DNA of 64,000 nt, taken from an uncultured Alphaproteobacteria bacterium. Lineage in GTDB: Bacteria; Pseudomonadota; Alphaproteobacteria; RF32; CAG-239. Where the stretch lies: NCBI GenBank assembly GCA_944391415.1, contig CALXTM010000001.1, forward strand, positions 64,548-128,547, given 5' to 3'. Each line of letters opens with the position of its first letter. The first letter of the stretch is position 1. This document shows positions 10,211-40,072 of this stretch, one piece after another. The position numbers and the translations under genes were made by a program. A model generated the notes under the pieces. The model searched no databases. It saw nothing but the letters and a program-made list of their open reading frames with translations, and was not told where the DNA came from.

Positions 10211-11119
10211 CTATTTCGACTTTTTAGTCTTACTTGATGCAACAGTCTTTTTAGCGGCTGCTTTCTTGGCCGGCGTTTTTTTAGCCACAGTCTTTTTAGC
10301 GGTTGCTTTTTTTGCAGCCGTCTTTTTAGCCGCCGGTTTCTTGGCCGTTGACTTCTTGGCTACAGTTTTTTTAGCAGCTGTTTTACGGGTTGCGGTTTTC
10401 TTGGCTGTCGCCTTTTTGGCCGATGTCTTTTTAGCTGTCATCTTTTTAGTCGGCGTCTTCTTGGCCGCAGATTTTTTAGCTGTCGTCTTTTTAGTCGGCG
10501 TCTTCTTGGCCGCAGATTTTTTGGCAGTTGTCTTTTTAGCTGATGTCTTCTTAGCTGCAGATTTTTTGGCAGCTGTCTTCTTGACTTTAGGTTTAACCGG
10601 TTTGGGTTGAGATGCTGCCAGAGCTTTTTCAATATCAACCTCTAAACATAACCCTATGGTAACCGGATTTTTGGGCTTAATAACCGACATATCTTTATGT
10701 GAGCCGTCGCGAATAGAATTGATGGTGTTCTTTGTCGTCCCGATAAGCTTACAAATAAGAGTATCTTTAATTTCGGGATAATTCTTCAATATCCAAGCAA
10801 TTGCATTGGGTTTTTCTTGACGTTGTGACGGAGACAAAACCTTTTTGGCCTTGAGATTACGAATTTTAACATTGCGTTCCATCTCGGATGCCTGCAAATT
10901 AGCTTTTTTATCTTGCTCGCAACGGTGTATCTCATCCCATGTCAGCTGACCGTTATCAATCGGAGATAACCCCCTGATGTTGCCAGAAACATCGCCATCA
11001 GCCATGGCTTGAATCTCAAGCTCGTGAATTTCACAAAAAACAGCAATCTGACGAAACGTAAGCGTCGTATTTTCAACCAGCCATACCGCTGTGGCACGAG
11101 GCATTAAAGGTGCTGTCAT
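10211..11119 (-). CDS. DUF1013 (TrcR-like) protein fused to a Lys/Ala-rich histone-H1-like tail
   Basis: The N-terminal ~160 aa ([38 protein letters not shown]...) match my recollection of alphaproteobacterial DUF1013. The C-terminal ~140 aa are AKKT/AAKK repeats. Confidence 0.75.
10214..10633 (-). repeat. in-frame tandem coding repeats (AKKxxAKK units)
   Basis: Repeated units such as gtctttttagtcggcgtcttcttggccgcagatttttt occur twice in a row (about 10438-10530), with many shorter degenerate copies. Confidence 0.8.
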
Positions 11120-11213
11120 ATTTTTATCCTTTCATCTATAAAAAACCAATATTCAAACTGACTACAGGATAATTTTTTTATTATAAATATACAAGTTTTT
11201 TTTGTGCTTTTAA

Positions 11214-12800
11214 TTAATATTTTAATTTATAAAGCTCTGCTGTCGTTGATGATTGTTTTAATTGTTTGTCACCTAAAAATTCAAGCTCGTAACTATCTGC
11301 GCCCAAAATGGTTGCGATATCCTTGGTTACAACAATCTCATTATTATAAATATGCTCAAAAATATCTGAAACATAATGACTTAAATTTATCTCGGTTTGT
11401 TCGGCGGCTTTGATGATTGCACAACAATTACGTAAAATAATGCGTTCATCATTGTTTTCTTCGCTATAAGCTCCGATATCTTTAAGATATTCAATCGCGA
11501 ACTTGGCTCCCTCGCGGGCTTTGGAAAAATCTATCGATGTAATACCGCAATCTTCAATAACATTGCTGCCATGATATTTTTCAACCAAATTAGCTATAAT
11601 TGCCCTGATGGCTCCGCTGGTATTGCTTGAAATATCGTCTTGGTTGGGTACTGAGGCATCCAAAAATTTTAAATCACTTTTGATATTCACACGGCAGGAA
11701 GTATCAGGCTCTAAAACAGCTTGGGGGGTCGATTCTTTTACCTTCGACTCTTGCGGCTTGTCTTGGGCAGATACTTCGGGATTGCGCTGCTCTTCCCATT
11801 TGGTAAAGGCTTTGTTCAATACTTTGGTATAGAGCTTTTGATCCGTGATAATTTGATGCATCAAAAATGCTCCGACACCGGTCAAATAAATCGCAATCTT
11901 ATTATCGCTATAGCTTTGTTTGGTCTCGTAGAATTCTTCCAAATCAGCTTTCTCTCCGTCAGTAATTCTAAAAGCATCATATAAAATAGAATTAGCTTCG
12001 CTTAACTTTAGCCCGCCATATCGCGCAAGCTCTAGACACCCGCCAAAAACCAACAACTTAACACCCAATCGTGAAAACTGATTCTGCAGAGCCGACCTCA
12101 CATTAAGGTTGGATAAAATCTCACTCAAAAAATAAATCAGGTATTGTTTATATTCCAAAGGGGCCTCTGGATATGTACTGGTTTTTAAGTTTGTGATATC
12201 AGAATTTATATTATAGGCTTTGACCAAACTTTGGGCACGCTCGAAAAATTTGTCATCATTTATCGCTGTTTTGTTTTCTTTTTCCTGATTAATAAAAATA
12301 TACCACGGGATATTTTTTAAAACCAACGGCACAGCCATGGCCAAGAAAACAATGAAAAATACAAAAAACAATAACGAACTGTTATGATCTTCGCCAACAA
12401 AAATTTCTAACAGCGGAAAAACCAAGCTTACAAAAATATTGGCAAAAATAAGACTAACCAATATAAGAGCTATAAATTTGACAATTGCTTTGTAAATATT
12501 GCGACGACTGTCTGCAATATCTTGGACAACCTCGTTGGAGTCTTTTTGATAGTCAATGTTGCTTAAGGTCTTTTTGCTGCCTTTTTTGCCACCTTGATTG
12601 CTTATATATTCAACCGATTCAATATAACTGTTGTCACTTACCTCAAATGTTTCTTTGATGATTTTGACACGATTGTGTGCGGCCTCCTGCTCTTTGGCCG
12701 TTTCATAGGCTTCATGACGTTGCTCGGTGGCATAACGCTCAATTAATTGCCAGCCAGACCCCGTATCAACATAAACTTCGTAATGAACAATTTTTGTCAT
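11214..12800 (-). CDS. hypothetical membrane protein
   Basis: 528 aa: a soluble N-terminal ~100 aa, two or three hydrophobic helices (IVKFIALILVSLIFANIFVSLVFPLL, LLFFVFFIVFLAMAVPLVL), then a large C-terminal domain of unknown family. Confidence 0.65.
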   Translation of the reverse strand: MTKIVHYEVYVDTGSGWQLIERYATEQRHEAYETAKEQEAAHNRVKIIKETFEVSDNSYIESVEYISNQGGKKGSKKTLSNIDYQKDSNEVVQDIADSRRNIYKAIVKFIALILVSLIFANIFVSLVFPLLEIFVGEDHNSSLLFFVFFIVFLAMAVPLVLKNIPWYIFINQEKENKTAINDDKFFERAQSLVKAYNINSDITNLKTSTYPEAPLEYKQYLIYFLSEILSNLNVRSALQNQFSRLGVKLLVFGGCLELARYGGLKLSEANSILYDAFRITDGEKADLEEFYETKQSYSDNKIAIYLTGVGAFLMHQIITDQKLYTKVLNKAFTKWEEQRNPEVSAQDKPQESKVKESTPQAVLEPDTSCRVNIKSDLKFLDASVPNQDDISSNTSGAIRAIIANLVEKYHGSNVIEDCGITSIDFSKAREGAKFAIEYLKDIGAYSEENNDERIILRNCCAIIKAAEQTEINLSHYVSDIFEHIYNNEIVVTKDIATILGADSYELEFLGDKQLKQSSTTAELYKLKY

Positions 12801-16259: not shown

Positions 16260-16517
16260 GTGAAAGAAAAATCAGCAATGGACGATAAAATTTTTGATTT
16301 TGCAAAAACCAAAGATGCTTTGAGCCAGCTGTCTGCTGACTTGATAGAGCTTAGTTCTGCCGTCAAGATAAAACAAACCAAACTTACTGCCAATCAACAA
16401 CAGGCCGAAAAAACAATCCAAAATCTTGAGCTGAAAATCGCCGAGTTGGATAAATCGCTGCAATCGGCAATTGCCGAAATAGACTTGATTAATAATTACA
16501 TTGAGGAGGCATTGTAG
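16260..16517 (+). CDS. coiled-coil protein, DUF4164/ZauP-like (ZapA partner)
   Basis: 85-aa all-coiled-coil ORF directly upstream of zapA, as in other alphaproteobacteria. GTG start at 16260, or ATG at 16278. Confidence 0.55.
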   Translation: MKEKSAMDDKIFDFAKTKDALSQLSADLIELSSAVKIKQTKLTANQQQAEKTIQNLELKIAELDKSLQSAIAEIDLINNYIEEAL

Positions 16518-16523: not shown

Positions 16524-16865
16524 ATGGCACAGGTTACCATTACTATTAATGCCCGAGAATATGCAATTGCTTGTGAAGATGGGCAGGAATTCAGAATTAT
16601 GCAGCTGGCGCGAATCCTTGATGAAAAAGCCAGACTTTTGACCGATGGCGGCAATCAAATAAGCGAAAGTATGTTGTTGGCAATGGTTGGACTATTGCTG
16701 GCTGACGAAATAAGTGAGCTTAAAAAGAATGCCGGCAAAAACGAATCCACCCCATCAGCTGATATTGCAGAGTCGGTAGCAAAAATTGACACAGAACTGG
16801 CGGAATCCGTAAAAAATTTGAGTGGCAAGTTGAAAGTTCTTGCCAATGAAATAAATTTGTTATAG
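16524..16865 (+). CDS. zapA: cell division protein ZapA
   Basis: 113 aa. MAQVTITINAREYAIACEDGQE... is the typical ZapA N-terminal beta motif, followed by a coiled coil. Confidence 0.8.
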   Translation: MAQVTITINAREYAIACEDGQEFRIMQLARILDEKARLLTDGGNQISESMLLAMVGLLLADEISELKKNAGKNESTPSADIAESVAKIDTELAESVKNLSGKLKVLANEINLL

Positions 16866-17128: not shown

Positions 17129-17917
17129 TTGAAAATCGTATACCTTGGCGATATTGTCGCCAGACCCGGTCGAGAGGCTGTTAGATCAGCTCTACGGGAG
17201 CTAAAAGAATTATATAAATTTGATGTGTTGATTGCCAATATTGATAATGCGGCTCACGGTTTCGGATGCACGCCCAAAATCTGCAAACAATTGCTGGAAG
17301 CCGGAGTTACCGCCATGGTGACCGGCGATCATGTGTGGGATCAAAAAGAAATTTTGCCTTTTTTGGATGACAACAAAAGAATTGTCAGACCGCTTAATTA
17401 TGCCTCTAATCTGCCGGGTTGCGGAGCCAGAGAAATACCTGTCGACACTGGGCAAAAACTGTTGTTGATAGAGGTCGTCGGACGAGTATTTATGGAAGAT
17501 GTCGCATCCCCGTTGGATGCTGTGGAAGAAATTTTACATAAATACACGTTAGGCCAAAATATTGATGCCATCTTTATTGATATTCATGCTGAAGCGACAG
17601 CTGAAAAACAAGCTTTTGCACGCTATTTTGACGGCAAAGTGTCGGCAGTAATCGGGTCTCATACCCATGTACCTACCAATGATGCAACTATTTTACCCAA
17701 AGGTTCGGCCTATCAAACAGATGCCGGGATGTGTGGCGACTATAACGGAGTTATCGGATTTAACGAACAAGCACCCATTGCCCGCTTAAAAGATAAAAAG
17801 TCGTCTTGTCGCCTTGAGCCTTGCACCGGCAAAGCAACCATTTGCGGAACTTTTATCGAAACAGACGATAAAACCGGTTTGGCAAAATCCATCGCCTTGA
17901 TAAAATTTAATCTATAA
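17129..17917 (+). CDS. YmdB-like metallophosphoesterase (TIGR00282 family)
   Basis: TTG start with a GAGGA 9 nt upstream. MKIVYLGDIVARPGR..., NIDNAAHGFG, GDHVWD and GSHTHVPTND metallophosphoesterase motifs. Confidence 0.8.
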   Translation: MKIVYLGDIVARPGREAVRSALRELKELYKFDVLIANIDNAAHGFGCTPKICKQLLEAGVTAMVTGDHVWDQKEILPFLDDNKRIVRPLNYASNLPGCGAREIPVDTGQKLLLIEVVGRVFMEDVASPLDAVEEILHKYTLGQNIDAIFIDIHAEATAEKQAFARYFDGKVSAVIGSHTHVPTNDATILPKGSAYQTDAGMCGDYNGVIGFNEQAPIARLKDKKSSCRLEPCTGKATICGTFIETDDKTGLAKSIALIKFNL

Positions 17918-19046
17918 TGGCACTCCCAAACGGTATCTCACTGCCAATTCCTTGGGCGATGTCTTCAAAATAGACAAAGCCTGTTTCACCGTTGTCAATC
18001 ATAACCCTGGCCCATACATTGTCCGGAGTATAACCGGTTAATCTGACGGTGGTTGATTTGGCAAGTGTCTTAATTGTATCAAAATCAGAAGATGGACCAT
18101 ACATGATTTTGCTTGTCTTGATGAGATGATAGAGCTTTGAGTTGTCTGATTTATCAACCGGAATGCTGATTATCTTACCTACAACCACATCATCAACGCT
18201 TTCTCCGCCATTGCCGAATTTTACCTGCTGATAATAATCTATTTCGTCTTTGGCCGCAAAGATATTCCAAAGTTCTGATTCGCTTAAATTAGTATATTTT
18301 TTTGCCAAGGGAAACGAAAACAATATCACCAAAATCAAAGGAATAACCAGTTGTACTGCCTTGAGTAAAGCTATGTTCCATGGTTTTGGCGCAAGGGTTT
18401 TGACATTAAATGTTTGCAAAAATCGGTCTATGAGCTTTGCATCCTCGGCCGAAGCAAATCGCTTGGCCAAAAGACCGCATTTGGTTGCTTCGACATAATG
18501 ACCATCTTTGGCGTAGGCTATCATATTGTGAATAAAAACCCTAAAAGTATCGCAAGATGATATCGGATGCAAAAAATTACCGGATATTGCTTTGATATTG
18601 GCAAAAAATGCTTTGGGATGCCACCAACCAATAAGCCAGTCAACAAATGCAATCAAAAAATTGAGCCTGATAGCCTTGGTATAGTTTACAATTTGGGTGT
18701 CGCTTGATATCTTATAGCCGCTAAACCAGGCCTTGATCATTTCAAGTTTAACGGCTCTGATATTAACACCTTCTTGCTCATCAACAAAAGGTGTCATGCT
18801 ATCTGTATCGGGATAGTTTTCTTTGTAATAAACCAACGACAGCAGGTCATAGACTAGTCTGCTTTTATCATTGCTAAGAATATCATAGGCAACCGAAAGC
18901 TGCTGAAAAATATCAGTAGCATTTGGGTCTTTGTTATAATCGGGATGCCATATTTTGGCTAAATCACGATAGGCTTTTTTGATTGTATCGACATCAGCAT
19001 ATTGTTCTATATGCAATATATCATAATACCCCAAAGCATCTTTCAT
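17907..19046 (-). CDS. J-domain membrane protein with C-terminal SH3_3-like domain
   Basis: N-terminus YYDILHIEQYADVDTIKKAYRDLAKIWHPDYNKD with an intact HPD. Two hydrophobic segments. C-terminus KIMYGPSSDFDTIKTLAKSTTVRLTGYTPDNVWARVMIDNGETGFVYFEDI fits the bacterial SH3 pattern. The ATG abuts the stop of the upstream ORF. Confidence 0.7.
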   Translation of the reverse strand: MKDALGYYDILHIEQYADVDTIKKAYRDLAKIWHPDYNKDPNATDIFQQLSVAYDILSNDKSRLVYDLLSLVYYKENYPDTDSMTPFVDEQEGVNIRAVKLEMIKAWFSGYKISSDTQIVNYTKAIRLNFLIAFVDWLIGWWHPKAFFANIKAISGNFLHPISSCDTFRVFIHNMIAYAKDGHYVEATKCGLLAKRFASAEDAKLIDRFLQTFNVKTLAPKPWNIALLKAVQLVIPLILVILFSFPLAKKYTNLSESELWNIFAAKDEIDYYQQVKFGNGGESVDDVVVGKIISIPVDKSDNSKLYHLIKTSKIMYGPSSDFDTIKTLAKSTTVRLTGYTPDNVWARVMIDNGETGFVYFEDIAQGIGSEIPFGSAIID

Positions 19047-20522
19047 CTAAACATATATCCCCTGTTTTATGGTGTTTTCGGGCAGAAAGCTTATAAATGC
19101 TTCTTTTTGATTGATTTTGATACTTCCTGCATAGCCAAGATTATAAATCGATTTCTTAAACAAATTGATAATATCGGTACAAAAATCTTTTTTCATATTT
19201 TGTGAAGTTCGGATTATCAAGTCAAAATGGCGTTTGGGTTTATCTGTTAGACCGTCAAATTGAAACCCGCCAAGTTTGGAAAACTCTGTTTCAACAATAA
19301 AACGAGTAATGTCTTGCAATCCTTGAGATTGGTTTTGCGGTTCATTTTGTTCCTTTTTTAGTGCTATTTTAAGCGGCTTAAAACTGTTGCCATCAAACAA
19401 AGGCATTTCAACAACACGCCATGATGGTGTTTCTTTAAGTGCGGACGAAATAAAAGAATTAAGCTCTTCCGTAATCAACGTTTTGGCCTCGGCTCCGTGA
19501 TGATCAAGTCGCAGGGTCTTGGCTGAAAGCCACTTGGATACATCTGTTTCTTTGATGGCTTGGTATAAATCATAGATATTTTCCAATAGATGTTCGCCGG
19601 TAAACGGCAGCTTTTTGACTATCTCGGCCAATAAAGGCGGATCAACCTCATTTAATACTGCCAAGTTTTTTAGTTGCGGATATGTTGCAACCATCTCCGG
19701 TTTTAGAGCTGAATTATGATCTTGATGCAACAAGGCAATAACATTATCCAAAAAAGCAAGTTCTTGCCTAAGTGTAGACGTTTGCGAGGTAATGGTTAAA
19801 ACAACCTGTTCGGCCAAAGGTAATTTTATTTCTGAAGGGAAAAAAGTATTACCCAACGGAGTATTGATAAATGTAAGATTATTAGTGCGGCCGGCCACTT
19901 CGCCGCCGATCTGCCGGCCGATAAAAGACGCAACTATATTTTGCAGCTGCTCTTTGGCTGATATTGCCGGCTGATCAGCCCTAATATTTGCAATATTGTC
20001 AAACCATTTTTGCAAGGAATTGAGCAAATCATTATTGTCAACTGTTTGACCAATGGACGATAAAGATACATTAAGCGGAGCAATATCTTGCGAAACTTGT
20101 TTTATTACACGTTCGGGAATGTGTAACTCCTTGAGCTTGCCTATTATCATGTCTTGCAATTTTAGCGGCGGCAAATCAATTGGCGGATACGTCCGTCCCT
20201 GTGGTGTTATCAGGGCTTGCTCGGTTTCATTGGGCAACTGAGATTTTAGAGGCACAATTTGACCGTTGCTTTTGATCTTGAGGCTGATGATTTGATCTTT
20301 GCTCAATGAGGCCGACAAAAAATTATCCGGCAAATTAACCTCAAATGTTTCTCCGTTAAGATGCAACAAATTTTTACCAGGCAAAATTTCCAACTTGGCT
20401 AATGCTCCTCCTTTGATCATATCCATAAATTGTGCGGGCAAATCTGAAAGTGTCCAAACCACTCCCGTGTCAGAAGTTGTAGGAATTAAACCCACCGATA
20501 ACGGATTAATAGAATTGTTCAT
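19047..20522 (-). CDS. hypothetical flagellar-operon protein with FliK-like (Flg_hook-like) C-terminus
   Basis: 491 aa, overlapping the flhG 3' end by 17 nt. The C-terminus FIVETEFSKLGGFQFDG...FDLIIRTSQNMKKDF...NLGYAGSIKI aligns by eye with the C-terminal domain of the FliK in this window. Confidence 0.6.
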   Translation of the reverse strand: MNNSINPLSVGLIPTTSDTGVVWTLSDLPAQFMDMIKGGALAKLEILPGKNLLHLNGETFEVNLPDNFLSASLSKDQIISLKIKSNGQIVPLKSQLPNETEQALITPQGRTYPPIDLPPLKLQDMIIGKLKELHIPERVIKQVSQDIAPLNVSLSSIGQTVDNNDLLNSLQKWFDNIANIRADQPAISAKEQLQNIVASFIGRQIGGEVAGRTNNLTFINTPLGNTFFPSEIKLPLAEQVVLTITSQTSTLRQELAFLDNVIALLHQDHNSALKPEMVATYPQLKNLAVLNEVDPPLLAEIVKKLPFTGEHLLENIYDLYQAIKETDVSKWLSAKTLRLDHHGAEAKTLITEELNSFISSALKETPSWRVVEMPLFDGNSFKPLKIALKKEQNEPQNQSQGLQDITRFIVETEFSKLGGFQFDGLTDKPKRHFDLIIRTSQNMKKDFCTDIINLFKKSIYNLGYAGSIKINQKEAFISFLPENTIKQGIYV

Positions 20523-21315
20523 TATTCATAATCCTTTTGGCTATGGAAATAACATCTAATGCTGCCTCTGACTGAGGATAGCGGTTGATAATAGTCGTCT
20601 GGTTACGGATAGAATCTCTTACTCTGGTATCATGTCTTATTACACCTAGCAACGGTAATGATTTTTTCAAGAACTCGCGACAAGCTTTATCCAAAATGCC
20701 ATAAGTTCTTAAACCGCTGTTAATATCATTGACCTGGTTAATGACCAAATAAAGCGAGGTTGCAGGATAACTCATGGTCAAAGTTTTTATCAAATCATAA
20801 CTATCGGTCACCGACTGCGGATTGTCTGTACAAATAACGATGGCCGACTTGGACATGCCTGCCAAAACTTTGGTTGAATTTGATAACCCGGCCTGCATAT
20901 CAAGAATCGTACGGTGATAATTTTGAGATAAAATATTCAAATCCTCACCCAGAATTTGCAGTCGTCCGACGGAAAGTGTTGATAGCCCCGATGCGCCTGG
21001 ATTGCCAACTGCCAAAGCAAAATGTCCTTTTTCATAATCAAAAACAACCTGGTTGAGACTTTTTTCGCCAGACATAACCAAATTGAGATCATTGACCGCC
21101 CCAAGGCCTAACTGAATCTTGATATTGTTAAGGCCGCAATCACCGTCAAACAAAAGAACTTTTTGTTTAAGCAAACTAAGTGCTTGTGCCAAAGTTATGG
21201 CAAACCAGGTCTTGCCGCTGCCGCGACGCCCGGAAATAACTGCAATCATATTTTTGCCTTTGAGGGCTGACGCATCTTCAGCAAAAACAGGATAATTTGC
21301 AAGCTTTTCTGTCAT
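20506..21315 (-). CDS. flhG: MinD/ParA-family ATPase, FlhG/FleN-like
   Basis: 269 aa. P-loop GRRGSGKT and MinD-like switch regions. Lies 5 nt downstream of flhA. Confidence 0.7.
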   Translation of the reverse strand: MTEKLANYPVFAEDASALKGKNMIAVISGRRGSGKTWFAITLAQALSLLKQKVLLFDGDCGLNNIKIQLGLGAVNDLNLVMSGEKSLNQVVFDYEKGHFALAVGNPGASGLSTLSVGRLQILGEDLNILSQNYHRTILDMQAGLSNSTKVLAGMSKSAIVICTDNPQSVTDSYDLIKTLTMSYPATSLYLVINQVNDINSGLRTYGILDKACREFLKKSLPLLGVIRHDTRVRDSIRNQTTIINRYPQSEAALDVISIAKRIMNNEQFY

Positions 21316-21320: not shown

Positions 21321-23432
21321 TTATATCTGCCCTACTGTTTTTATTTTGGCTTTGGGATGAATTTCATTTTGCGACATAACCACACTAAGCGGCCTAAAAC
21401 GCTCAATAATCGAACGTACAAACGGCCTGATGCCAGGGCTCGTTAGTATTACCGGGCTTTCACCTTTGGCTGCTAAATCTTCCATCACAGTACGAACCTT
21501 GCTTATAAAAGCCTGAAGCATACTGGGAGCCATAGCCAGTTGCCTTTCATCACCCTCGCCAACAATGGACTGCGCAAAATTTTGCTCCCATTCTGCCGAT
21601 AACGGAACCAAAGAAATAACCCCAAACTCGTTGGCATAGGCGTTTGATAATTGTCTGGACAAACGACTTCTGACATGCTCGGTAATAAGCATAAGGCTGT
21701 GTGTCGAGGTAACCGCTTCGGAAATACCTTCCAAAATAGTTGGGAGATCGCGAATCGATACCCGCTCTTGTAAAAGATTTTTGAGGACGCGTTGAACCGC
21801 TGCCAGGCTGATTTTGGACGGAATAAGGTCTTTGACCAATTTTTGGTGCTCTTTGTCCAGTTCATCAAGCAATTTTTGGGTTTCGGCATAGGACAAAAGT
21901 TCGGGCATGTTTTCTTTGACCAATTCGGTAATATGGGTTGTAACAACCGTGGCCGGATCAACAACCGTATAGCCTCTGAACATGGCCTCTTCTCGATAAG
22001 AGGGGTCAACCCACATGGCTTTGAGCCCAAAGGTTGGCTCAAAAGTGTCTTCACCCGGCAAATTAATCGGCTCACCGCGCGGATCCATAACCAAAAGTTG
22101 GGTCGGCCGCAATTCGCCTTTGCCGGATTTTACTTCTTTGATATAGATATTGTATTCATTGGCCTCAAGCTGCATATTGTCTTGAATACGAATCGATGGC
22201 ATAACAAAACCAAGCTCTAATGCCAGGGCTCGGCGTAATGCTTTAATTTGATCGGTTAGCTTGCGGTTGGATTCCTCATTAATCAACGGTAATAAACCAT
22301 AGCCTATTTCCAAACGAATTAGGTCAACTTTCAAAACATTGGCTATCGGCTCATCGGCTAATTTGCTTAAAGCACTTTGCTTTTGCTCTTGTTCCATAAC
22401 TGCTTGGGCCTGGGCAAATTCTTCTTTTTGGCGTTTATCCAAATAATATGCAGTGCCACCGGTCAAACTGGCTAAGATTAAAAACGGAATTGCCGGGGTT
22501 CCAGGTATCATACCCAAGGCAACCGCCAAACCGGCACTCATACCAAGAGCCTTGGGATAGTTGGCCAACTGCTCAAACAAAACTTTGTCGGTTGATTCCG
22601 TCATGCCGGCCTTGGAAACCAAAATACCGGCTGCAACCGAAACAATCAGAGCCGGAACCTGACTGACCAAACCATCACCGACCGTAAGACGAGTATAAGT
22701 CTCACCGGCGGCAGAAAAGCTCATGTCGTTTTGAACCATGCCGATGATAATACCGGCAACAATATTGATAAACGTTATAAGCAAACCGGCTATTGCGTCG
22801 CCTCTTACAAATTTTGAGGCACCATCCATGGCTCCGTAAAAAGAACTTTCTTTTGACAAGTCTTCGCGGCGTTTCTTGGCTTCGTCTTCATTGATTAGGC
22901 CTGATGATAAATCGGCATCAATGGCCATTTGCTTGCCTGGCATTGCATCCAAAGCAAAGCGGGCGGCAACTTCGGCAATACGACCAGAACCTTTGGTAAT
23001 TACCACAAAATTTACCAAAATCAAAATTGCAAAAATGATTACGCCGATAACAAAATTATTGCCCATAATAAAACCGCCAAACGCTTTAATAACTTCTCCG
23101 GCGGCATCGGGGCCAAGATAACCTCGTGATAAAATAAGCCTGGTAGATGCCAAATTAAGCGCCAGACGATATAATGTGGTGATTAATAAGACCAGCGGAA
23201 ATGCACTGAATTCTATAGGCTTTTCAATAAAAATAGCCATCATCAAAACCACACAAGACATGGTGATAGATAGCGCCAAGGCAATATCCAACAGCCATGT
23301 CGGAAGCGGCAAAATCAAAATAACCAACATCAAAATTATGGAAACCGCAAAAAGCAAGTCGCCTCTTTTGGCCGAGCCTAAAAACATCTCTCGAAACGAT
23401 GTGCGGATATTATTTGTCGTTGCTTTTGCCAT
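21321..23432 (-). CDS. flhA: flagellar export apparatus protein FlhA
   Basis: 703 aa. An N-terminal polytopic membrane domain followed by a large cytoplasmic domain, with a typical FlhA N-terminus ...RGDLLFAVSIILMLVILILPLP. Confidence 0.95.
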   Translation of the reverse strand: MAKATTNNIRTSFREMFLGSAKRGDLLFAVSIILMLVILILPLPTWLLDIALALSITMSCVVLMMAIFIEKPIEFSAFPLVLLITTLYRLALNLASTRLILSRGYLGPDAAGEVIKAFGGFIMGNNFVIGVIIFAILILVNFVVITKGSGRIAEVAARFALDAMPGKQMAIDADLSSGLINEDEAKKRREDLSKESSFYGAMDGASKFVRGDAIAGLLITFINIVAGIIIGMVQNDMSFSAAGETYTRLTVGDGLVSQVPALIVSVAAGILVSKAGMTESTDKVLFEQLANYPKALGMSAGLAVALGMIPGTPAIPFLILASLTGGTAYYLDKRQKEEFAQAQAVMEQEQKQSALSKLADEPIANVLKVDLIRLEIGYGLLPLINEESNRKLTDQIKALRRALALELGFVMPSIRIQDNMQLEANEYNIYIKEVKSGKGELRPTQLLVMDPRGEPINLPGEDTFEPTFGLKAMWVDPSYREEAMFRGYTVVDPATVVTTHITELVKENMPELLSYAETQKLLDELDKEHQKLVKDLIPSKISLAAVQRVLKNLLQERVSIRDLPTILEGISEAVTSTHSLMLITEHVRSRLSRQLSNAYANEFGVISLVPLSAEWEQNFAQSIVGEGDERQLAMAPSMLQAFISKVRTVMEDLAAKGESPVILTSPGIRPFVRSIIERFRPLSVVMSQNEIHPKAKIKTVGQI

Positions 23433-23441: not shown

Positions 23442-24755
23442 CTACTCCTGATGCGAAGGAATTTCAAACCCTTCTTCCTGATATTGCTTAAGCTTGTTAC
23501 GCAGTGTGCGAATTGATATTCCCAATAAGGTCGCCGCCGTGGAACGATTCCAGGAGGTGCTTGCCATGGTGTCTAAAATTAATTTGCGCTCTACCTCGGC
23601 AACTGTGTGACCAACTGCGCTGTTTTCGTCTTTTTGCTCAACACTTTTATGAGCTGAGGCATCTTGCAACATAACAGATGCTTCATCTATTTCATCGCCG
23701 GTCGACAGCAAAACCGCACGATGCATGGTGTTTTCCAGCTCCCTTACATTGCCTGGCCACAAATAATTAAGAAGCATCTTTTCGGCTCCGGCCGATAAAT
23801 CTTTCATCGGTAATTCATTTAGCTCGGAATATTTTTTTATAAAATGCTTGGCCAAAACTATAATATCACCAGGGCGGTCTTTAAGCGCGGGAATATTGAG
23901 ATTGATAACATTAAGCCGATAGTATAAATCTTGGCGAAAACTTCCGTCTTGTACACATTGCTCAAGATTGCGGTTTGAGGTTGCAATAATGCGGGTGTCT
24001 ACTTTAACTGGGGTTTTGCCTCCCAAACGATCAATCTCTTTTTCCTGAATAGCACGAAGCAATTTGGCTTGAAGCCCAATATTCATCTCTGATATTTCAT
24101 CCAAAAGCAAAGTACCGCCGGAGGCCTCTTCAAATTTGCCGATACGACGAGCAACCGCGCCGGTAAAAGCTCCTTTTTCATAACCAAATAACTCCGATTC
24201 AAGCAATGCCTCCGGAATGGCAGCACAATTGACAGCAACAAATTTTTGGTTGGCGCGTTTAGAATTGTCATGAATAAAGCGTGAAAAAATTTCTTTACCA
24301 GTACCGGATGCTCCGGTAATCAAAACACTTGCCTCTGACGGAGCAATCTGCTTGGCCATTTTTAGAATTGCTTCGGTTTTTTTGTCGCCATATATCAAGG
24401 CGTGGCTTTCTCTGGTAGCCGCGGCTAAAACCGCACCGATCAGCTCGGGATCCGGAGGCAGAGGGATATACTCCTTGGCCCCGGCTTTGATCGCTTTAAC
24501 GGCTAAAGACGTATCATTGGCAACACCACAGGCAACAACCAAAACATTGATGCGAGCATCAGTAAGCGATGAAATAAATTTGTGAACATCAAGCGTCACA
24601 TCTATCATCACTAGCTCTATCGTTTTGCCAGAACGCAAAATATCAAGTGCAGTTTCGATGCTGTCTGCCAAAGAAACCTGCCCTCCCTTGGAGATGGCAA
24701 TTTTACTTGCCGCTCCTATTTGTCCGTTTAATGTTCCGACAATAAGCAATTCCAT
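23442..24755 (-). CDS. flbD: sigma-54-dependent flagellar transcriptional activator (FlbD/FleR type)
   Basis: 437 aa: receiver-like N-terminus, AAA+ core with GASGTGKE Walker A and the GAFTGA loop (EKGAFTGAV), and a C-terminal Fis-type HTH AATLLGISIRTLRNKLKQY. Confidence 0.85.
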   Translation of the reverse strand: MELLIVGTLNGQIGAASKIAISKGGQVSLADSIETALDILRSGKTIELVMIDVTLDVHKFISSLTDARINVLVVACGVANDTSLAVKAIKAGAKEYIPLPPDPELIGAVLAAATRESHALIYGDKKTEAILKMAKQIAPSEASVLITGASGTGKEIFSRFIHDNSKRANQKFVAVNCAAIPEALLESELFGYEKGAFTGAVARRIGKFEEASGGTLLLDEISEMNIGLQAKLLRAIQEKEIDRLGGKTPVKVDTRIIATSNRNLEQCVQDGSFRQDLYYRLNVINLNIPALKDRPGDIIVLAKHFIKKYSELNELPMKDLSAGAEKMLLNYLWPGNVRELENTMHRAVLLSTGDEIDEASVMLQDASAHKSVEQKDENSAVGHTVAEVERKLILDTMASTSWNRSTAATLLGISIRTLRNKLKQYQEEGFEIPSHQE

Positions 24756-24771: not shown

Positions 24772-25125
24772 TTATTTGTTTGGCGCTTTAATAACTTCCG
24801 TCATGGTAATGCCAAGTTTATCGTCAACAACCACAACCTCGCCTCTGGCAACCAGACTGTTGTTGACATAAATATCTATAGCTTCGCCAACTTTGCGGTC
24901 AAGCTCGATAATGGCTCCTTTGCTAAGTTTCATCAACTGGCTTACCTTCATACTTGTTTTGCCCAAAACAGCCGACACCTTGACCGGAATATTATAGACC
25001 GCCTCAAGATCAGAGGTCGATGTGGGGATGTCAAAATCCTCCATACCTACATCTTTGCGCAAAATCGGCTCGTCATCAGAACTTTGCGATGCGCTCATTT
25101 CATTTAGTTCAAAATTATTATCCAT
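24772..25125 (-). CDS. fliN: flagellar motor switch protein FliN
   Basis: 117 aa. SpoA-type C-terminus VSAVLGKTSMKVSQLMKLSKGAIIELDRKVGEAIDIYVNNSLVARGEVVVVDDKLGI. Confidence 0.9.
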   Translation of the reverse strand: MDNNFELNEMSASQSSDDEPILRKDVGMEDFDIPTSTSDLEAVYNIPVKVSAVLGKTSMKVSQLMKLSKGAIIELDRKVGEAIDIYVNNSLVARGEVVVVDDKLGITMTEVIKAPNK

Positions 25126-25876
25126 GTTCCCTCTCTTGTGTATTATTATCTAGTAACTCTTTAACTTTATTTAATGTCTCCGATACATTGCGTTCCACAC
25201 CACCGTTTTTCCATTCGATACGGCAATCACTCGGCCCCAAAGTATCATCTTTGTGAACAGCTATTTTGCCTTCAAAATCATTTTGCTCGGCCAGCTTGCC
25301 TATGCTGTCGGCAACAAGCGTAACCGTCGCCGGATTAAATGCAAAAGAAAGTGTCTCCTGTCCGGCAAAATTGGCAAAATTTTGCGCCATAAAATTTTTG
25401 ACCTCAACCTCGGCTCGTTCTTTTTCTAATGTCGGCAAAATTTTGCGCACTAATTCTATGGCAAATTGCAGGGCTGAATTTTCAACCTCGGTAGCTTTTT
25501 TATCTAATCCGGCAAAAATATCGGTCAACTGTCTACTAATATCTTCCAATAATAAGTCTCGTTTTTTATCTTCTTCCCCTATTGCCTCGGTACGACCTTG
25601 CTCATAGGCTTTTTCCTCGGCCATTTTTACCGCAGCATCAAGCTCTTCTTTTGAATAGCTTGGCTCTTGCTCAACCGGTGCTTTGATTGGCTCCTCGACC
25701 GCAACCGGTATTACTGCCTCTGGCTCAACAACTGCCTGATCTGTTGTGAGGACCTCTTCTGGTAAATTATCAGCTGAGGTATCAACATCTTGGCTAACAG
25801 TCAATGTTTCTTCAGTCGACGGGGGCTCGCTTGAAACCACGAAATTATCAAACATATATTTTTGATACTCTGCCAC
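25118..25876 (-). CDS. fliH: flagellar assembly protein FliH (FlbE-type)
   Basis: 252 aa between fliG and fliN, with an acidic N-terminus and a C-terminal ...GPSDCRIEWKNGGVER motif typical of alphaproteobacterial FliH. Confidence 0.7.
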   Translation of the reverse strand: MAEYQKYMFDNFVVSSEPPSTEETLTVSQDVDTSADNLPEEVLTTDQAVVEPEAVIPVAVEEPIKAPVEQEPSYSKEELDAAVKMAEEKAYEQGRTEAIGEEDKKRDLLLEDISRQLTDIFAGLDKKATEVENSALQFAIELVRKILPTLEKERAEVEVKNFMAQNFANFAGQETLSFAFNPATVTLVADSIGKLAEQNDFEGKIAVHKDDTLGPSDCRIEWKNGGVERNVSETLNKVKELLDNNTQEREHG

Positions 25877-25895: not shown

Positions 25896-26918
25896 TTAAT
25901 ATATCAGCTCGTCGCTGTCTTTACCCTCGGACACAATAATCTCGCCGCTGTTGGCCAAATCTTTGGCCGTAGAAACGATGTATTGTTGCGCCTCTTCAAC
26001 ATCTCTGACACGAACAGGCCCCATAGCATCCATATCCTCTTTGATAATTTTACCGGCACGTGTCGACATATTGTTGAAGAACAATTCTTTAACTGTCTCA
26101 GATGCTCCTTTTAATGCTATTGCCAACTTATCTTTATCTACATTACGCAGCAAAATTTGGATGCCTTGCGAATCGATACGAACCAAATCTTCAAACGTAA
26201 ACATCAAAGATTTTACGCGCTCGGCACTTTCGCGGTTGCGCTCTTCCAACGCCTCCATAAAACGAGTTTCGGTGTTGCGGTCCAATGAATTGAAAATATC
26301 GGCAATAAGCTCGTGGGCATCTCTTCTGGTGGATTTGGACAAATTGCTCATAAACTCTTTGCGCAAGGTCTTTTCAAGACTATCCAAAACCTCTTTTTGA
26401 ACAGAATCCATCCTAAGCATGCGCATGACTATTTCCATCGCAAAATTTTCAGGGAAAAGCGCTATAACCTTGGCTGCATGCTCGGCCTTGATTTTGGATA
26501 AAATAACTGCAATGGTTTGCGGATATTCGTTTTTGAGATAGTTGGCCAAAACATGTTCGTTGACATTGCCAAGTTTATCCCACATCGTGCGGCCGGCAGG
26601 GCCCCTGATCTCCTCCATAATGACTGAAACGCGGTCTTTGTCCAGCGCTTTGGCAAGCAACCTTTCCGTGCTTTCGTAAGAGCCGACCAAACTGCCCGTA
26701 CTGCTGATTTTGTCATTAAATTCGGCAATAAGTTGTTCAATGACGTTGGAGTTTATTTTGCCCAATGAGGCCATGATAACCGAAAGCTCTTTAATCTCCT
26801 CGTCATCCATCATCGAAAACAAGGTGGCTGAGCGCTCTTCATCCAAAGACAGCATCAAAATGGCAGCTTTTTGCTGACCTGATAAAAGATTGTAATCGTC
26901 GATAACATTTTGTTTCAT
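25896..26918 (-). CDS. fliG: flagellar motor switch protein FliG
   Basis: 340 aa. GQQKAAILMLSL N-terminus and MFTFEDL C-terminal torque-helix region. Confidence 0.95.
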   Translation of the reverse strand: MKQNVIDDYNLLSGQQKAAILMLSLDEERSATLFSMMDDEEIKELSVIMASLGKINSNVIEQLIAEFNDKISSTGSLVGSYESTERLLAKALDKDRVSVIMEEIRGPAGRTMWDKLGNVNEHVLANYLKNEYPQTIAVILSKIKAEHAAKVIALFPENFAMEIVMRMLRMDSVQKEVLDSLEKTLRKEFMSNLSKSTRRDAHELIADIFNSLDRNTETRFMEALEERNRESAERVKSLMFTFEDLVRIDSQGIQILLRNVDKDKLAIALKGASETVKELFFNNMSTRAGKIIKEDMDAMGPVRVRDVEEAQQYIVSTAKDLANSGEIIVSEGKDSDELIY

Positions 26919-26929: not shown

Positions 26930-28552
26930 CTAACCTTCGTTGTTATACAGCCATGAACGAATAACGTTGACAGCCGCGTCGGGGTTCTTTTCAACCGTTG
27001 CATTGAGTTTTTTGAGCGATGATACTTTGATACGACCATCAACCTTATTAATATTAACCAATTCTTCGGCCGATTCATCAAAATTGTCATTAAGGAAGTT
27101 GGACAACAGCAAATTATCCTCTTCATCACCTGGAGCAATAAGCTTTTCTGCCGAATTGTTGTTGGATACTTCAAACGCATTGTTAATCAACGGACGAATT
27201 ACCAATAAAATAACCAGTATCGCAACTATTGCAACACCAAGCCCCTCGGCCATACGCATCAGCTCTGATTTACTAAATCCGAAATAAAGCTGCTCAACCT
27301 TATCGGCAATGCCAGAATCGGCTGTGGCAAATTGCAGATTTTCAACCTCGACCATATCGCCACGATTGGCATCAAAACCAACTGCCGACTTTACCAAATC
27401 GCTGATTTGCTCCATTTCCTCGGCCGTGCGCGGACGATAAACTATTTTGCCGTCGCTGCCTTTTTCATAGACACCATCGACTAAAACCGCTGCCGTTAAC
27501 CTTTTGATCGTACCGGTATTTTTAACTTTGTTGCGCACAATCTTGGAAATCTCATAATTGATGGTTTCTTCAGTCTTTGAAGAAGTATCATAAACTCCTC
27601 CGCTTGATGATGCAGTATCGCCGTTGGGTATGTTTTGCGCAACGGTAACGGGCTGTGAGTTCTGGGTAGAGGTTCCTTGCTCGGAAATAGTCGCTTGTGA
27701 TCTCACAACCTGGCTGTCGGGATCATAGATTTCTTCGTTAGTAACAACCTCGTCAAAATCCATCTCGATATTTACTTGAGCAACGGCTTTACCGGCGCCA
27801 AGGCTTTTTTCCAAAAGCGACTGAACTTTTTTGGCTATTTTGCGCTCTTGCTCAATGCGCATTGCTTCATTGGTAGAGTTTTTAATTACTTCGCTTTGCT
27901 CTTCACTATATTCGGTCAACAAATTACCATTGGAGTCAACTATCGAGACATTTTTTACCTCAAGCTTGGGAACTGCCGCGGCAACCAACTTTTGAATAGA
28001 TTGGATGTTTTGCGGGCTAAGTGAGCCTTGCTTGGTTTTGATAACAACCGAGGCGGTCGGAGTTTGCTCTTCTCGCGAGAAAAGCTCGCGCTTGGGCATA
28101 ACCAAATGTACTCTGGCAGAACGAATATTGTCAACCGACCGAATGGTCCTTGCCAATTCACCTTCTAGGGCCCTGAGCAAATTGACATTTTGCACAAATG
28201 TGGTCGAGCCCAAAGCATCGGTATGGTCAAACACTTCGTAGCCGACATTAGCTCCTTTGGAGGCAAGAGCCAAATCGGCCGTTTCTATTCTCATGCGATT
28301 TACATCTTCAACCGGCACCAAAACCTCGGTCCCTGATTTTGTTAGTTTATATTTGACATTGGCCGAATCAAGTTTGGCCACTATCTGTTTGGCATCTTCA
28401 AGATCCAAATCAGTATAAAGAACCGAATATTCGCTGCCGCTCATTTGAACCGCGACATAAATAAAAAAGCTAATCAGAAAAATGATAATGGCCGCAATCG
28501 ACGCCAACTTCGACGGCGACATATTTTTGATAGTCTGCAAAATATTATTCAT
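26930..28552 (-). CDS. fliF: flagellar M-ring protein FliF
   Basis: 540 aa with N- and C-terminal TM helices and a YscJ/FliF periplasmic ring domain. First gene of the operon. Confidence 0.95.
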   Translation of the reverse strand: MNNILQTIKNMSPSKLASIAAIIIFLISFFIYVAVQMSGSEYSVLYTDLDLEDAKQIVAKLDSANVKYKLTKSGTEVLVPVEDVNRMRIETADLALASKGANVGYEVFDHTDALGSTTFVQNVNLLRALEGELARTIRSVDNIRSARVHLVMPKRELFSREEQTPTASVVIKTKQGSLSPQNIQSIQKLVAAAVPKLEVKNVSIVDSNGNLLTEYSEEQSEVIKNSTNEAMRIEQERKIAKKVQSLLEKSLGAGKAVAQVNIEMDFDEVVTNEEIYDPDSQVVRSQATISEQGTSTQNSQPVTVAQNIPNGDTASSSGGVYDTSSKTEETINYEISKIVRNKVKNTGTIKRLTAAVLVDGVYEKGSDGKIVYRPRTAEEMEQISDLVKSAVGFDANRGDMVEVENLQFATADSGIADKVEQLYFGFSKSELMRMAEGLGVAIVAILVILLVIRPLINNAFEVSNNNSAEKLIAPGDEEDNLLLSNFLNDNFDESAEELVNINKVDGRIKVSSLKKLNATVEKNPDAAVNVIRSWLYNNEG

Positions 28553-28683: not shown

Positions 28684-28713
28684 CAAAAAAATTAGGGGGC
28701 TTTCTGCCCCCTG
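28684..28713 (-). terminator. rho-independent terminator of the fliK-flgD-flgE operon
   Basis: AGGGGGC-AGAAA-GCCCCCT hairpin (minus strand) followed by TTTTTTT. Confidence 0.8.
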
Positions 28714-31668: not shown

Positions 31669-33222
31669 CTAAACCCTGATGTTAAGACCCAATACCGGAT
31701 CATACTCAAGGTTGTCGTTTCCGGCAACTTCTTGAGCCTCCTGCTCAAGAGCATCGCCGATAAACTGCATCAAACCGGAGTTATCTTCCTGGCCTCCTCG
31801 GGCTTGATTTTCCTTCTGGAAGCTAAAATTAAAGCTTCTGCTGTCCGTGTCATAGCCGGCATCGTTAAATGCTTTCTGCAAACCGGAGAGATCTTTTTGC
31901 AACAAATCCATGGTCTCCGGACGAGAGGAAATGATATCGGCATGTAATTTGCCATCCTTGGCAATGTGCATTCTGATTTGTATTTTGCCCAAATCTTCTG
32001 GTTTGAGCTGGATATCTATTGTATCAACCCCTTTGATGGCTGATTTGGTAATATTTACTTTTATTTGCTCGACAACCTCTTTGCCCATGCCTTTGAAGGC
32101 ATCGCGGCTGGAGCTTTCGTTAAGCCGAGAGAATGTTTCCGTCCGCAAATTGTTGGCTGTTTCAAAGACCATATCTTTGCCTGATGCGGCAATGTTTGAT
32201 GCATCAATCTTAATGTTGGCATTGTTGCCGGCGGAAACAGAATCATCTGCAGCCGACGATGCCTTGTAGACAAAAGCATTGGCAGCAACCTCTGTTGTCG
32301 GCTTGGTTTTGATTGCAAGCGGATCTTTGGCTACCTCAACTTCAGCATCCTGAAGCGAGAGGTCTGTCTGGTCGACCTCTTGCAAAAGAGAATCTATTTC
32401 AAAACGATTTTGCAAAACATCTTTGGCTACCGGAGCCTCGACCTTATCCTCGCTAACTTCAACCGCGATTTTCAATTTATCTGTTGAAGCAATTTTTTTA
32501 TCAAGATATTGTGCTTGTTCAAGCAACAACGCCTCATCACTGGTTAAAGGCATTACCTCGGCTGATGTATCTTGAGCAACCGCTGCGGCCTTGGTGTCGA
32601 TTGGGGAAATCTGCGCACTAGTTTCATCGGCCAAAGGCAAACCCTCACTCATCGATGATGCATCATCCAAAAGCACCATATTCACAAACGGCTGAGCATT
32701 TGCATCCGTTGATGCTTGAGAGACAGGTGACATTTCGGAGTTAAGCGGAGCAGACAATTCTGTATCAGCCTCTTTAGCGGCAATATTTTCCTCATCTGCG
32801 GCAACTTCATCTTGCTTGGTAGGTTGAGAAGATGATGTTTTGGGGTCTGTATCAGACGGCTTGTCTGTTTCTTTTGATTTATCGGCTTTTTTATGATTGT
32901 CAGCCTCGTCATCTTTTTGATCTTTATGCGGAGCCTGATTTTCTTTTATATCATCATCTTTTTTATTGTCTTTAGAGGAGGTTACATCCTTTTTGTCATC
33001 ACAAGATTTGTCGGATGACAACGAAACCTTGGTATCAACATAGTCATCACGTTTAAAATCAGCAGAAAGGTCTTGCCCCTTATCGCCGCTTGAGACTGGC
33101 GTGTCGGCGGGCTTTAACATGTCGGCAAAATCCTGCGTCGGCTGCTTTATGCTTAAATTATTTTCGGCTCTGGCAAGGAATAATTGCTGTAATATATTAT
33201 TTCTGTCTTGTATTTCCATCAC
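31669..33222 (-). CDS. fliK: flagellar hook-length control protein FliK
   Basis: 517 aa. Long acidic/Lys-rich disordered N-terminal region. C-terminal Flg_hook domain IDIQLKPEDLGKIQIRMHIAKDGKLHADIISSRPETMDLLQKDLSGLQKAFNDAGY. Confidence 0.8.
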   Translation of the reverse strand: MMEIQDRNNILQQLFLARAENNLSIKQPTQDFADMLKPADTPVSSGDKGQDLSADFKRDDYVDTKVSLSSDKSCDDKKDVTSSKDNKKDDDIKENQAPHKDQKDDEADNHKKADKSKETDKPSDTDPKTSSSQPTKQDEVAADEENIAAKEADTELSAPLNSEMSPVSQASTDANAQPFVNMVLLDDASSMSEGLPLADETSAQISPIDTKAAAVAQDTSAEVMPLTSDEALLLEQAQYLDKKIASTDKLKIAVEVSEDKVEAPVAKDVLQNRFEIDSLLQEVDQTDLSLQDAEVEVAKDPLAIKTKPTTEVAANAFVYKASSAADDSVSAGNNANIKIDASNIAASGKDMVFETANNLRTETFSRLNESSSRDAFKGMGKEVVEQIKVNITKSAIKGVDTIDIQLKPEDLGKIQIRMHIAKDGKLHADIISSRPETMDLLQKDLSGLQKAFNDAGYDTDSRSFNFSFQKENQARGGQEDNSGLMQFIGDALEQEAQEVAGNDNLEYDPVLGLNIRV

Positions 33223-37552: not shown

Positions 37553-37694
37553 GGTATTTCTCCCAAATTGACTTACTTTATAATTTCTTGTTACTACAAG
37601 AAATCGCTTAACAATTGCCCAACCAATCAATGCCTGATTAGACAATATAATGTGATTGTAATATAAAATATTTAATTATTGCTTAACAAGCAAA

Positions 37695-37724
37695 TGCGAG
37701 AGGCAGATGTTATATCTGCCTCCC
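37695..37724 (-). terminator. probable terminator of flagellin copy 2
   Basis: GAGGCAGAT-ATAAC-ATCTGCCTC hairpin. The downstream U-tract is weak. Confidence 0.5.
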
Positions 37725-37740
37725 TGATTAATCATATTTA

Positions 37741-38828: not shown

Positions 38829-38859
38829 AAAAAAAGGGGAGACAATGAATTGTCTCCCC
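38829..38859 (-). terminator. rho-independent terminator of flagellin copy 3
   Basis: GGGGAGACAA-TTCA-TTGTCTCCCC hairpin followed by TTTTTTT on the minus strand. Confidence 0.8.
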
Positions 38860-38886
38860 TTTTTAATAATCCACTTTGGCCAGTAT

Positions 38887-40047: not shown

Positions 40048-40072
40048 TTTTTGGGAGAAATGCTCCAATATC

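Follow-up and report, generated by a model that had tools for sequence, protein, structure and literature searches.

The 3' tail of a flagellar operon in gut Alphaproteobacteria: FlhG without a neighbouring FlhF, an unnamed protein family and a membrane J-protein

It is still unresolved by what means FlhF and FlhG control where flagella form and how many, and how this control is linked to the export apparatus (PMC7226244). A stretch of 64,000 nucleotides (nt) from an uncultured alphaproteobacterium (GTDB lineage RF32, CAG-239; contig CALXTM010000001.1, positions 64,548 to 128,547), henceforth called the window, raises this question in a concrete form. There, flhG directly follows the export-gate gene flhA and no flhF intervenes. 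Downstream of flhG, on the same minus strand, lie two genes here named X, an open reading frame (ORF) of 491 amino acids (aa), and J, an ORF of 379 aa. What are these proteins, and what became of a FlhG that has no FlhF next to it? A reading of the window from its letters alone (the sequence-only reading) had proposed that the flhA operon ends in a translationally coupled tail of flhG, a second FliK-like gene and a gene for a J-domain membrane protein. Here we examined this tail in the window and in its relatives. The gene order was conserved in each of 31 gut-clade loci. The signature lysine of FlhG was replaced in all loci that lack flhF next to flhG. X was found to be a member of a very large unnamed alphaproteobacterial family, and J is specific to the gut clade. 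We are confident of these gene identities and of the evolutionary pattern. The best overall explanation, that FlhG, X and J act together on flagellum assembly, we favour by a small measure.

A conserved gene order behind flhA

Relatives were collected with a profile from a 14-sequence alignment, scanned over one genome per GTDB species. This yielded 30 loci, all in metagenome-assembled genomes (MAGs) from the guts of humans, ruminants and other animals. Gene order was mapped by tblastn in 31 distinct gut-clade loci, the window included, 12 of them with and 19 without flhF. The order flbD-flhA-[flhF]-flhG-X-J was present in 31 of 31. The two most divergent J-family members checked (L048 and L049; about 43% identity) likewise sit behind flhF-flhG-X. 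The relatives of J form more than 160 clusters; J occurs in the gut clade only, in every case behind X. Close relatives of X make up about 60 clusters, all from uncultured Alphaproteobacteria and none with a name or a Pfam domain.

The ORFs of flhA (21321..23432), flhG (20506..21315, 269 aa), X (19047..20522) and J (17907..19046), all on the minus strand, are those which the sequence-only reading had delimited, and so are their junctions. The stop codon of flhA is followed after 5 nt by the ATG of flhG, flhG overlaps X by 17 nt, and the TAG of X runs straight into the ATG of J. Of the 19 flhF-less loci, 12 have a flhG/X overlap of 17 nt, and nine of the 12 flhF-containing gut loci have one of 8 nt. 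From the X stop to the J start the distance is between -20 and +1 nt in all 31 loci, and exactly 0 in 18. The junctions and the conserved order thus support a translationally coupled flhG-X-J tail. That X and J are coupled stop to start points to matched synthesis, possibly to a complex. The ratios of non-synonymous to synonymous substitution rates (dN/dS) were 0.03–0.07 for FlhG (flhF-less pairs), 0.10–0.23 for X and 0.06–0.12 for J; all three genes are under purifying selection.

The tail belongs to a row of nine minus-strand genes, fliF-fliG-fliH-fliN-flbD-flhA-flhG-X-J, in which every gap is at most 19 nt or an overlap. The row begins with fliF for the MS (membrane and supramembrane) ring (26930..28552; YscJ_FliF 1e-60, YscJ_FliF_C 3e-46), followed by fliG (25896..26918; domains FliG_N, FliG_M and FliG_C), fliH (25118..25876; FliH 1.3e-5) and fliN (24772..25125; 117 aa), which overlaps the 3' end of fliH by 8 nt and has a FliMN_C gene at the equivalent position in relatives. 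Then come flbD for a Caulobacter-type sigma-54 activator (23442..24755; NF050807 FlbD 1.8e-202) and flhA (FHIPEP 7e-260, TIGR01398 7.5e-269). The upstream operon boundary is a terminator-like hairpin with a T-run directly 3' of flgE (28694..28712, minus strand), consisting of a 7-bp stem with 6 GC pairs and then AATTTTTTTG. Between 28694 and 17907 the minus strand holds no second hairpin of like strength; none of the rest has more than 3 GC pairs. Because of the tight spacing, and because a strong terminator-like site is located only upstream of fliF, the nine genes look like one operon. Thus, fliF to J is one long class-II-type flagellar operon and flhG-X-J is its 3' tail. Upstream of fliF, a look for sigma-54 or CtrA promoters returned merely two weak GG-N10-GC matches. 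At the other end the 3' end of J overlaps that of the convergent plus-strand gene ymdB by 11 nt (17907-17917). This convergent overlap is also seen in most flhF-less relatives, e.g. in L001, where J ends at 10613 and ymdB occupies 10603-11376.

FlhG and the missing flhF

The window FlhG matched CbiA (2.4e-12), AAA_31 and ParA, i.e. it has the MinD/ParA P-loop nucleoside triphosphatase fold. Its matches to TIGR01969 (7.6e-22) and TIGR01968 (1.1e-16) both fell short of the equivalog cut-offs. The protein is 53–57% identical to the FlhG of flhF-containing relatives, encoded in the same slot; within the flhF-less clade identities are 51–80%. The window gene is a true FlhG orthologue whose lineage has lost flhF from its ancestral slot. 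An SRP54-type flhF (313–342 aa) is retained between flhA and flhG in 13 distinct loci, 12 of the gut clade and L005, a more distant outgroup without J. In 19 loci, the window included, flhG comes directly after flhA. Accordingly, the sequence-only reading was right that flhF is missing from between flhA and flhG, and close relatives carry it at just the expected place. A tblastn search of the 64-kb window with FlhF from two relatives found nothing (best E 0.38). For the relatives, flhF absence covers about 20 kb each.

FlhG proteins are marked by ATP-dependent dimerisation and by binding to the membrane with a C-terminal amphipathic helix. In MinD/ParA ATPases the signature lysine enters the active site of the partner in the ATP-sandwich dimer. 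The Walker A motif reads SGKGGVGKTW in all 13 flhF-containing loci. The window reads ISGRRGSGKTW (residues 28-36, SGRRGSGKT, codons at 21208..21234, minus strand): R30 replaces the signature lysine and R31 the next glycine, and the P-loop residues K35 and T36 are retained. The P-loop had been called unusual from the window alone. This was confirmed, and the abnormality co-varies with the loss of flhF in every locus examined (13/13 versus 19/19). Across the 19 flhF-less loci the signature lysine has given way to R, N, H, F, C, Y, T or A and the glycine behind it to R, H or Q. The switch motifs follow suit. Switch I is FDGDLGLAN in 13 of 13 flhF-containing loci as opposed to DCGLNN, DSGLSN or more divergent versions in the flhF-less ones, and Switch II, LDMGAGVE in the same 13, is variable in the 19. 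Both groups have kept the P-loop GKT, most DxD motifs and the C-terminal 60 or so residues (GIIRxDTRVRDSIRNQ...YPxSEAA). The dN/dS of FlhG is two to three times higher in the flhF-less than in the flhF-containing clade. A decaying pseudogene was considered and ruled out by the dN/dS values and the intact ORFs. The simplest reading of these motifs would be that FlhG no longer needed its ATP-dimer switch after the loss of the FlhF GTPase and that another function, residing in the conserved C-terminal part, remains.

A neighbour-joining tree of FlhA has the main flhF-less clade and the flhF-containing clade as sisters, and L018 and L019 branch separately. Possibly, therefore, flhF was lost twice independently with the same decay of FlhG; a simple neighbour-joining tree is a weak basis, and we say only that there may have been two losses. 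The FlhG proteins of L018 and L019 read SGHHGSGKTW, and the second Asp of the DxD motif is gone (FDGS).

Firmicute and gammaproteobacterial FlhG proteins are described to have an N-terminal FlhF-activating peptide, DQAxxLR. The window FlhG indeed lacks it, as the sequence-only reading had stated. As a sign of a missing FlhF this is not informative: the flhF-containing relatives, Azospirillum, L037 and L038 lack the peptide too, and its absence is therefore not diagnostic in this class. The 12 flhF-containing FlhGs of the gut clade (L003, L024-L030, L032-L035) share an N-terminal MENxEELKxAP...RKG which is absent from all flhF-less FlhGs and may be a local equivalent of the activating peptide. 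In L022 (9226-10146) the FlhG frame extends past the usual stop to 315 aa, which may be a frameshift or an assembly error of the MAG.

The X family and the membrane J-protein

X is a soluble protein without a transmembrane segment by hydropathy. It matched nothing in Pfam and NCBIfam, and its profile found nothing among PDB sequences. A Pfam search with 29 X-family and 10 distant members gave scattered noise only (YscW 0.0035–0.09, SAM_3 and similar). Conservation peaks over the last 150 or so residues. A C-terminal domain, residues 340-491 (19050..19505, minus strand), defines the family; invariant positions are W368, P374, R407-F408, S415, G418, Q421-F-D-G424, D434-L435, R438, F455 and G466. 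The profile of this domain was searched against 1.84 billion representative proteins and matched 3010 of them at E<=1e-3 and 2469 at E<=1e-10. Among the matches listed, lengths are mostly 480-870 aa, next to shorter, apparently truncated proteins, and the domain is C-terminal in all. The ten distant members are likewise unnamed and without Pfam domains. The gene comes immediately after flhA-flhF-flhG in L005 (a MAG contig), in L037, in L038 (soil metagenome contig) and in one JGI contig. It does so as well in Azospirillum lipoferum 4B on the AZO_p2 chromid, where the product, WP_014188891.1 (AZOLI_RS19710; L039 7609-9456), is annotated 'hypothetical protein'. In this homologue the conserved domain comes after some 400 aa of low complexity rich in Pro, Ala and Thr. 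Since the same gene follows flhG in every context examined, X is not peculiar to the window. It is a member of a very large unnamed alphaproteobacterial family and a widespread, undescribed companion of flhF/flhG. At the place of J, Azospirillum encodes a 117-aa hypothetical protein (L039 9453-9806) that overlaps the X homologue by 4 nt.

Is the C-terminal domain of X related to the type III secretion substrate-specificity-switch (T3S4) domain of FliK, as a comparison of short motifs by the sequence-only reading had suggested? HMMER did not bear this out. The Pfam Flg_hook model (PF02120) matched 0 of 29 X-family members at E<=5, whereas the positive control, the bona fide FliK of the window (31669..33222, minus strand, upstream of flgD and flgE), scored 4.8e-16. 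With a hidden Markov model (HMM) of the X domain, run against all ORFs of the window, the true FliK obtained -0.5 bits. One FliK relative is labelled 'Azospirillum sp. CAG:260'. Profile-profile comparison gave a different picture. With shallow alignments hhalign was not significant (E=0.44, P=0.16), yet it chose the register that had been proposed. An alignment of 194 X sequences was then compared with FliK C-termini from gut FliKs and from eight alphaproteobacterial replicons. It scored 20.3 (P=0.013), again in the Flg_hook register. None of 200 column-shuffled FliK alignments reached this score (maximum 17.5, mean 11.2, s.d. 2.2), and controls with the FliK alignment reversed, or with each of three unrelated alignments, gave 12-13.

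An AlphaFold2 model of the X domain has a predicted local distance difference test (pLDDT) of 84-95 over a strand-strand-strand-helix-strand core. With this model Foldseek ranked the PscP switch domain (5cuk) first among 350,542 PDB chains (probability 1.00, template modelling score 0.49, root-mean-square deviation (rmsd) 3.4 Å over 72 columns) and the C-terminal domain of FliK (2rrl) second (probability 0.91). That both top ranks fall by chance to type III switch domains is unlikely for a protein encoded close to flhA, as far as a model can tell. The T3S4-like core thus delimited by domain model, Foldseek and hhalign comprises residues 403-475 or so (19098..19316, minus strand). On these grounds a remote FliK/YscP-type T3S4 domain at the C-terminus of X is reasonably probable. 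Of the proposed resemblance, then, the register is recovered and the predicted fold agrees with it, and Flg_hook itself goes unmatched. The full-length X model has a mean pLDDT of 71.6; residues 1-19 are predicted disordered and residues 22-250 folded, beta-rich plus helical (pLDDT about 60-85). Foldseek with the full-length model brought up weak matches to Hsp90 N-domains (rmsd about 17 Å), which we judged meaningless.

FliK/YscP proteins are exported by the type III apparatus, bind the C-terminal domain of FlhB/YscU and have a long, disordered N-terminal ruler with an export signal; fliK lies beside the hook genes flgD/flgE, and its product controls hook length. Like FliK, YscP and PscP, X ends in a domain of about 70 residues with this strand order, aligned in register, is encoded in a flagellar operon near the gene of the export gate and has distant relatives with long Pro-rich low-complexity regions before the domain. 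The differences are considerable. The X domain is larger by three strands and a helix, FQFDG and DLxxR are invariant motifs peculiar to it, and a folded N-terminal half is predicted for the window protein. The X gene keeps company with flhF/flhG, not with flgD/flgE, and it coexists with a normal fliK. For these reasons X is neither an orthologue of FliK nor a recent paralogue. The designation as a 'second FliK' had to be dropped: X represents a separate large family located after flhG also in genomes with flhF. HpaC of Xanthomonas is a non-ruler, cytoplasmic T3S4 protein of an injectisome; it acts on HrcU and is much shorter than X. It would be a precedent for a T3S4 protein that acts from the cytoplasm on a gate of the FlhB/YscU family without measuring length.

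J begins with a J domain (residues 7-67; 18846..19028, minus strand; DnaJ 4.8e-20), and its HPD motif (H34, P35, D36), noted as intact before, is invariant in 30 of 30 family members. The only Pfam matches are DnaJ and SH3_3. Because a Gly/Phe region, a zinc finger and the DnaJ C-terminal domains are all absent, J is a type III J-protein. TIGR02349 matched its N-terminal part only (69 bits, cut-off 377), and the DjlA model NF006948 gave E=0.0086, far under the cut-off. The remainder of J produced noise only against PDB sequences, with a Sel1 protein at E=1.8. The SH3_3-like domain proposed for the C-terminus (3.7e-4 at residues 317-358) stays below the Pfam cut-off in the window protein (21 versus 27 bits); in the family it is borne out by 21 of 30 members, the best at 6.2e-6. 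The region that it lies in (17910..18200, minus strand) belongs to the C-terminal 100 or so residues, the most conserved part of the family, with dense invariant columns at 285-375.

The two transmembrane segments ascribed to J were not recovered. By Kyte-Doolittle hydropathy (19-residue window, transmembrane level 1.4) each of 30 members has exactly one hydrophobic peak above this level, at residues 225-248 or so (18303..18374, minus strand), which scores 2.67 in the window protein. The conserved stretch NWLxGWWHPKAF, probably the one taken for a second segment in the sequence-only reading, was rejected with a hydropathy of at most 1.08. K+R amounts to 3.17 before the helix and to 1.20 after it, and D+E to 0.37 before and 1.90 after. 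By the positive-inside rule, the N-terminus of J is probably cytoplasmic and the C-terminus periplasmic, i.e. the J domain and a helical domain of about 150 aa would probably face the cytoplasm. As J has a single transmembrane helix, the SH3b-type domain is most likely periplasmic. The N-in orientation is also what a J domain that interacts with DnaK requires; J-domain proteins, the Hsp40 co-chaperones, stimulate the ATPase of DnaK.

Two membrane-anchored J-proteins invite comparison. DjlA is a type III J-protein with a C-terminal J domain, no periplasmic SH3 domain and no flagellar linkage; J resembles it in being membrane-anchored and in lacking the Gly/Phe region, the zinc finger and the DnaJ C-terminal domains. 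SflA of Vibrio alginolyticus is a single-pass protein with a periplasmic N-terminal domain of tetratricopeptide-repeat (TPR)/Sel1-like type and a cytoplasmic C-terminal J domain. It co-localises with flagella, and in cells that lack FlhF and FlhG it represses flagellation (PMC7226244). In our search of the literature for proteins encoded downstream of flhG or J-proteins in flagellar clusters only the work on SflA was found. J, too, is predicted to be bitopic in the inner membrane with a cytoplasmic J domain and a periplasmic interaction domain, and the tie to FlhF/FlhG is shared in that SflA is relevant precisely when FlhF is missing. The domain order of J is however reversed, its periplasmic part is of the SH3b type, its gene is the last of the flhA operon, and homology does not go beyond the J domain. 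Hence J is an analogue of SflA, not a member of its family. The remark that an Hsp70 co-chaperone in a flagellar operon lies outside textbook systems stands in that a J-domain membrane protein is encoded there; a J-domain flagellar regulator does have a precedent in SflA, whose gene is Vibrio-specific and outside the flagellar clusters (PMC7226244).

Alternative explanations and a possible common role

For X, two other explanations have to be weighed. It could be a second secreted ruler or switch, i.e. a functional FliK paralogue which is exported and measures a second structure or sets a second switch step. The T3S4-like domain would fit this, as would the wide range of lengths among the matches listed, the ruler-like low-complexity half of the Azospirillum homologue and the disordered first 20 or so residues of the window protein. 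With residues 22-250 predicted to be folded, a family that leaves Flg_hook unmatched, a normal fliK already upstream of flgD-flgE and a gene that travels with flhF/flhG instead of hook or rod genes, we consider such a ruler improbable. A secreted role somewhere in the X family may nevertheless be entertained in view of the Azospirillum architecture. Alternatively, the T3S4 likeness could be coincidental and X a scaffold, polar landmark or adaptor for FlhF/FlhG, analogous to HubP or FipA, its C-terminal alpha/beta domain binding FlhG, FlhF or the C-ring instead of the export gate. X strictly adjoins flhG with overlapping frames in all loci, HMMER finds no similarity to FliK, the Foldseek E-values exceed 0.01, and the full-length model yielded only the meaningless Hsp90 matches. 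Coincidence would have to account for two type III secretion switch domains at the top of 350,542 chains, for hhalign having independently picked the same register and outscored 200 of 200 shuffles, and for the persistence of X, unchanged, in genomes without flhF. We regard the scaffold as unlikely, albeit with some claim to attention.

J and FlhG can also be viewed in more ordinary ways. J might be a DjlA-like J-protein with general duties in the envelope or in proteostasis, hitch-hiking at the operon end without a flagellar role. Outside its J domain it is similar to no flagellar protein, SH3b domains commonly bind peptidoglycan, and the synteny with ymdB, zapA and efp further downstream holds as well. 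A hitch-hiker is nonetheless hard to reconcile with a gene that starts -20 to +1 nt behind X in 31 loci and in L048 and L049, over 43-100% identity and in both flhF clades. Moreover, no J-family member was seen in other contexts among the loci examined, and in the flhF-containing clade the downstream neighbours change and X-J stays fixed. We deem this very improbable. Equally small, in our estimate, is the chance that FlhG is normal, flhF having moved elsewhere and Arg-for-Lys leaving a working ATPase. Arginine does preserve the positive charge in the window protein, and only a part of each genome was inspected. Against this stands a signature position occupied by any of eight residues across the flhF-less clade and hence unconstrained, with drift in both switch motifs and a raised dN/dS, compared with 13 of 13 flhF-containing loci that are invariant at the signature and switch sites.

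The reading we prefer, a FlhG released from its FlhF cycle that acts with a T3S4-like X and a membrane J-protein on flagellum assembly, has points against it as well. The T3S4 assignment of X comes from a predicted structure and a modest profile-profile score, Flg_hook finds no X-family member, and the Foldseek E-values are individually weak (0.04 for 5cuk, 0.15 for 2rrl), with a predicted structure as query. FliK-like behaviour of the window X is not to be assumed because its N-terminal half looks folded and not disordered. The topology of J is deduced solely from hydropathy and the positive-inside rule. flhF may sit elsewhere in the genome, beyond the 64 kb or 20 kb inspected, and R30 might partly stand in for the signature lysine in the window FlhG.

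With this in mind we put forward a mechanism of which we are doubtful ourselves. FlhG, X and J would constitute a module for post-transcriptional control of the initiation and completion of basal bodies. The T3S4-like domain of X would dock on the export gate, at the C-terminal domain of FlhB or at FlhA, as FliK-type domains do, and X would connect gate activity to the FlhF/FlhG placement system. FlhG shares its slot after flhA(-flhF) and its MinD/ParA fold with FlhG/FleN/YlxH and differs from them by the missing partner gene nearby, the lost signature lysine and the relaxed switch motifs. It could retain binding to a partner (the C-ring or FlbD) without forming the ATP-sandwich dimer, as no FlhF GTPase is left to regulate. 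The periplasmic SH3 domain of J may tether it close to the basal body, and J would recruit DnaK to nascent basal bodies or to X/FlhG, and so remodel or clear nascent or misplaced assemblies, as has been proposed for SflA. A wider version, equally tentative, would have X as a core component of FlhF/FlhG-type flagella in thousands of alphaproteobacterial lineages including Azospirillum, a cytoplasmic or secreted T3S4-domain protein coupling the gate (FlhB/FlhA) to the machinery for placement and number. The gut clade would have added J and DnaK, and the module would run without FlhF, FlhG serving as a non-catalytic adaptor.

Further features of the window were recorded on the way. Between accB/accC and the flagellin array a 364-aa Sel1-repeat protein is encoded (35276-36370, minus strand; Sel1 4.4e-39). 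It could be another flagellum-associated interaction protein; SflA, too, uses a TPR/Sel1-like domain. The array (36482-41299, minus strand) consists of four tandem flagellin genes (387, 283, 344 and 408 aa), each with Flagellin_N and Flagellin_C. On the plus strand an 85-aa coiled-coil ORF without a Pfam match (16260-16517) lies 6 nt upstream of zapA (16524-16865) and is kept at the same place in L001 and L048; we take it to resemble the ZauP-type partner that Caulobacter encodes in front of its zapA. A gene for a T2SSE-family ATPase (43718-44686, minus strand; VirB11/CpaF-like, 2.7e-31), with small ORFs behind it, may mark a locus for a pilus or for type IV secretion downstream of the flagellar region.

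What does the operon tail mean for flagellar biology? If the T3S4-like domain is real, X stands out as a tangible candidate for the link that is missing between flagellar placement and the export gate. The roughly 3000 representative clusters of its family carry no annotation beyond 'hypothetical', even in the genetically tractable Azospirillum. The flhF-less gut clade is a natural experiment that separates the parts of FlhG needed only for the FlhF cycle, i.e. the signature lysine and the switch motifs, from the C-terminal third, which is always needed. A membrane J-protein encoded in the operon itself extends the lone precedent of SflA, and recruitment of Hsp70 to basal bodies may be a recurring solution.

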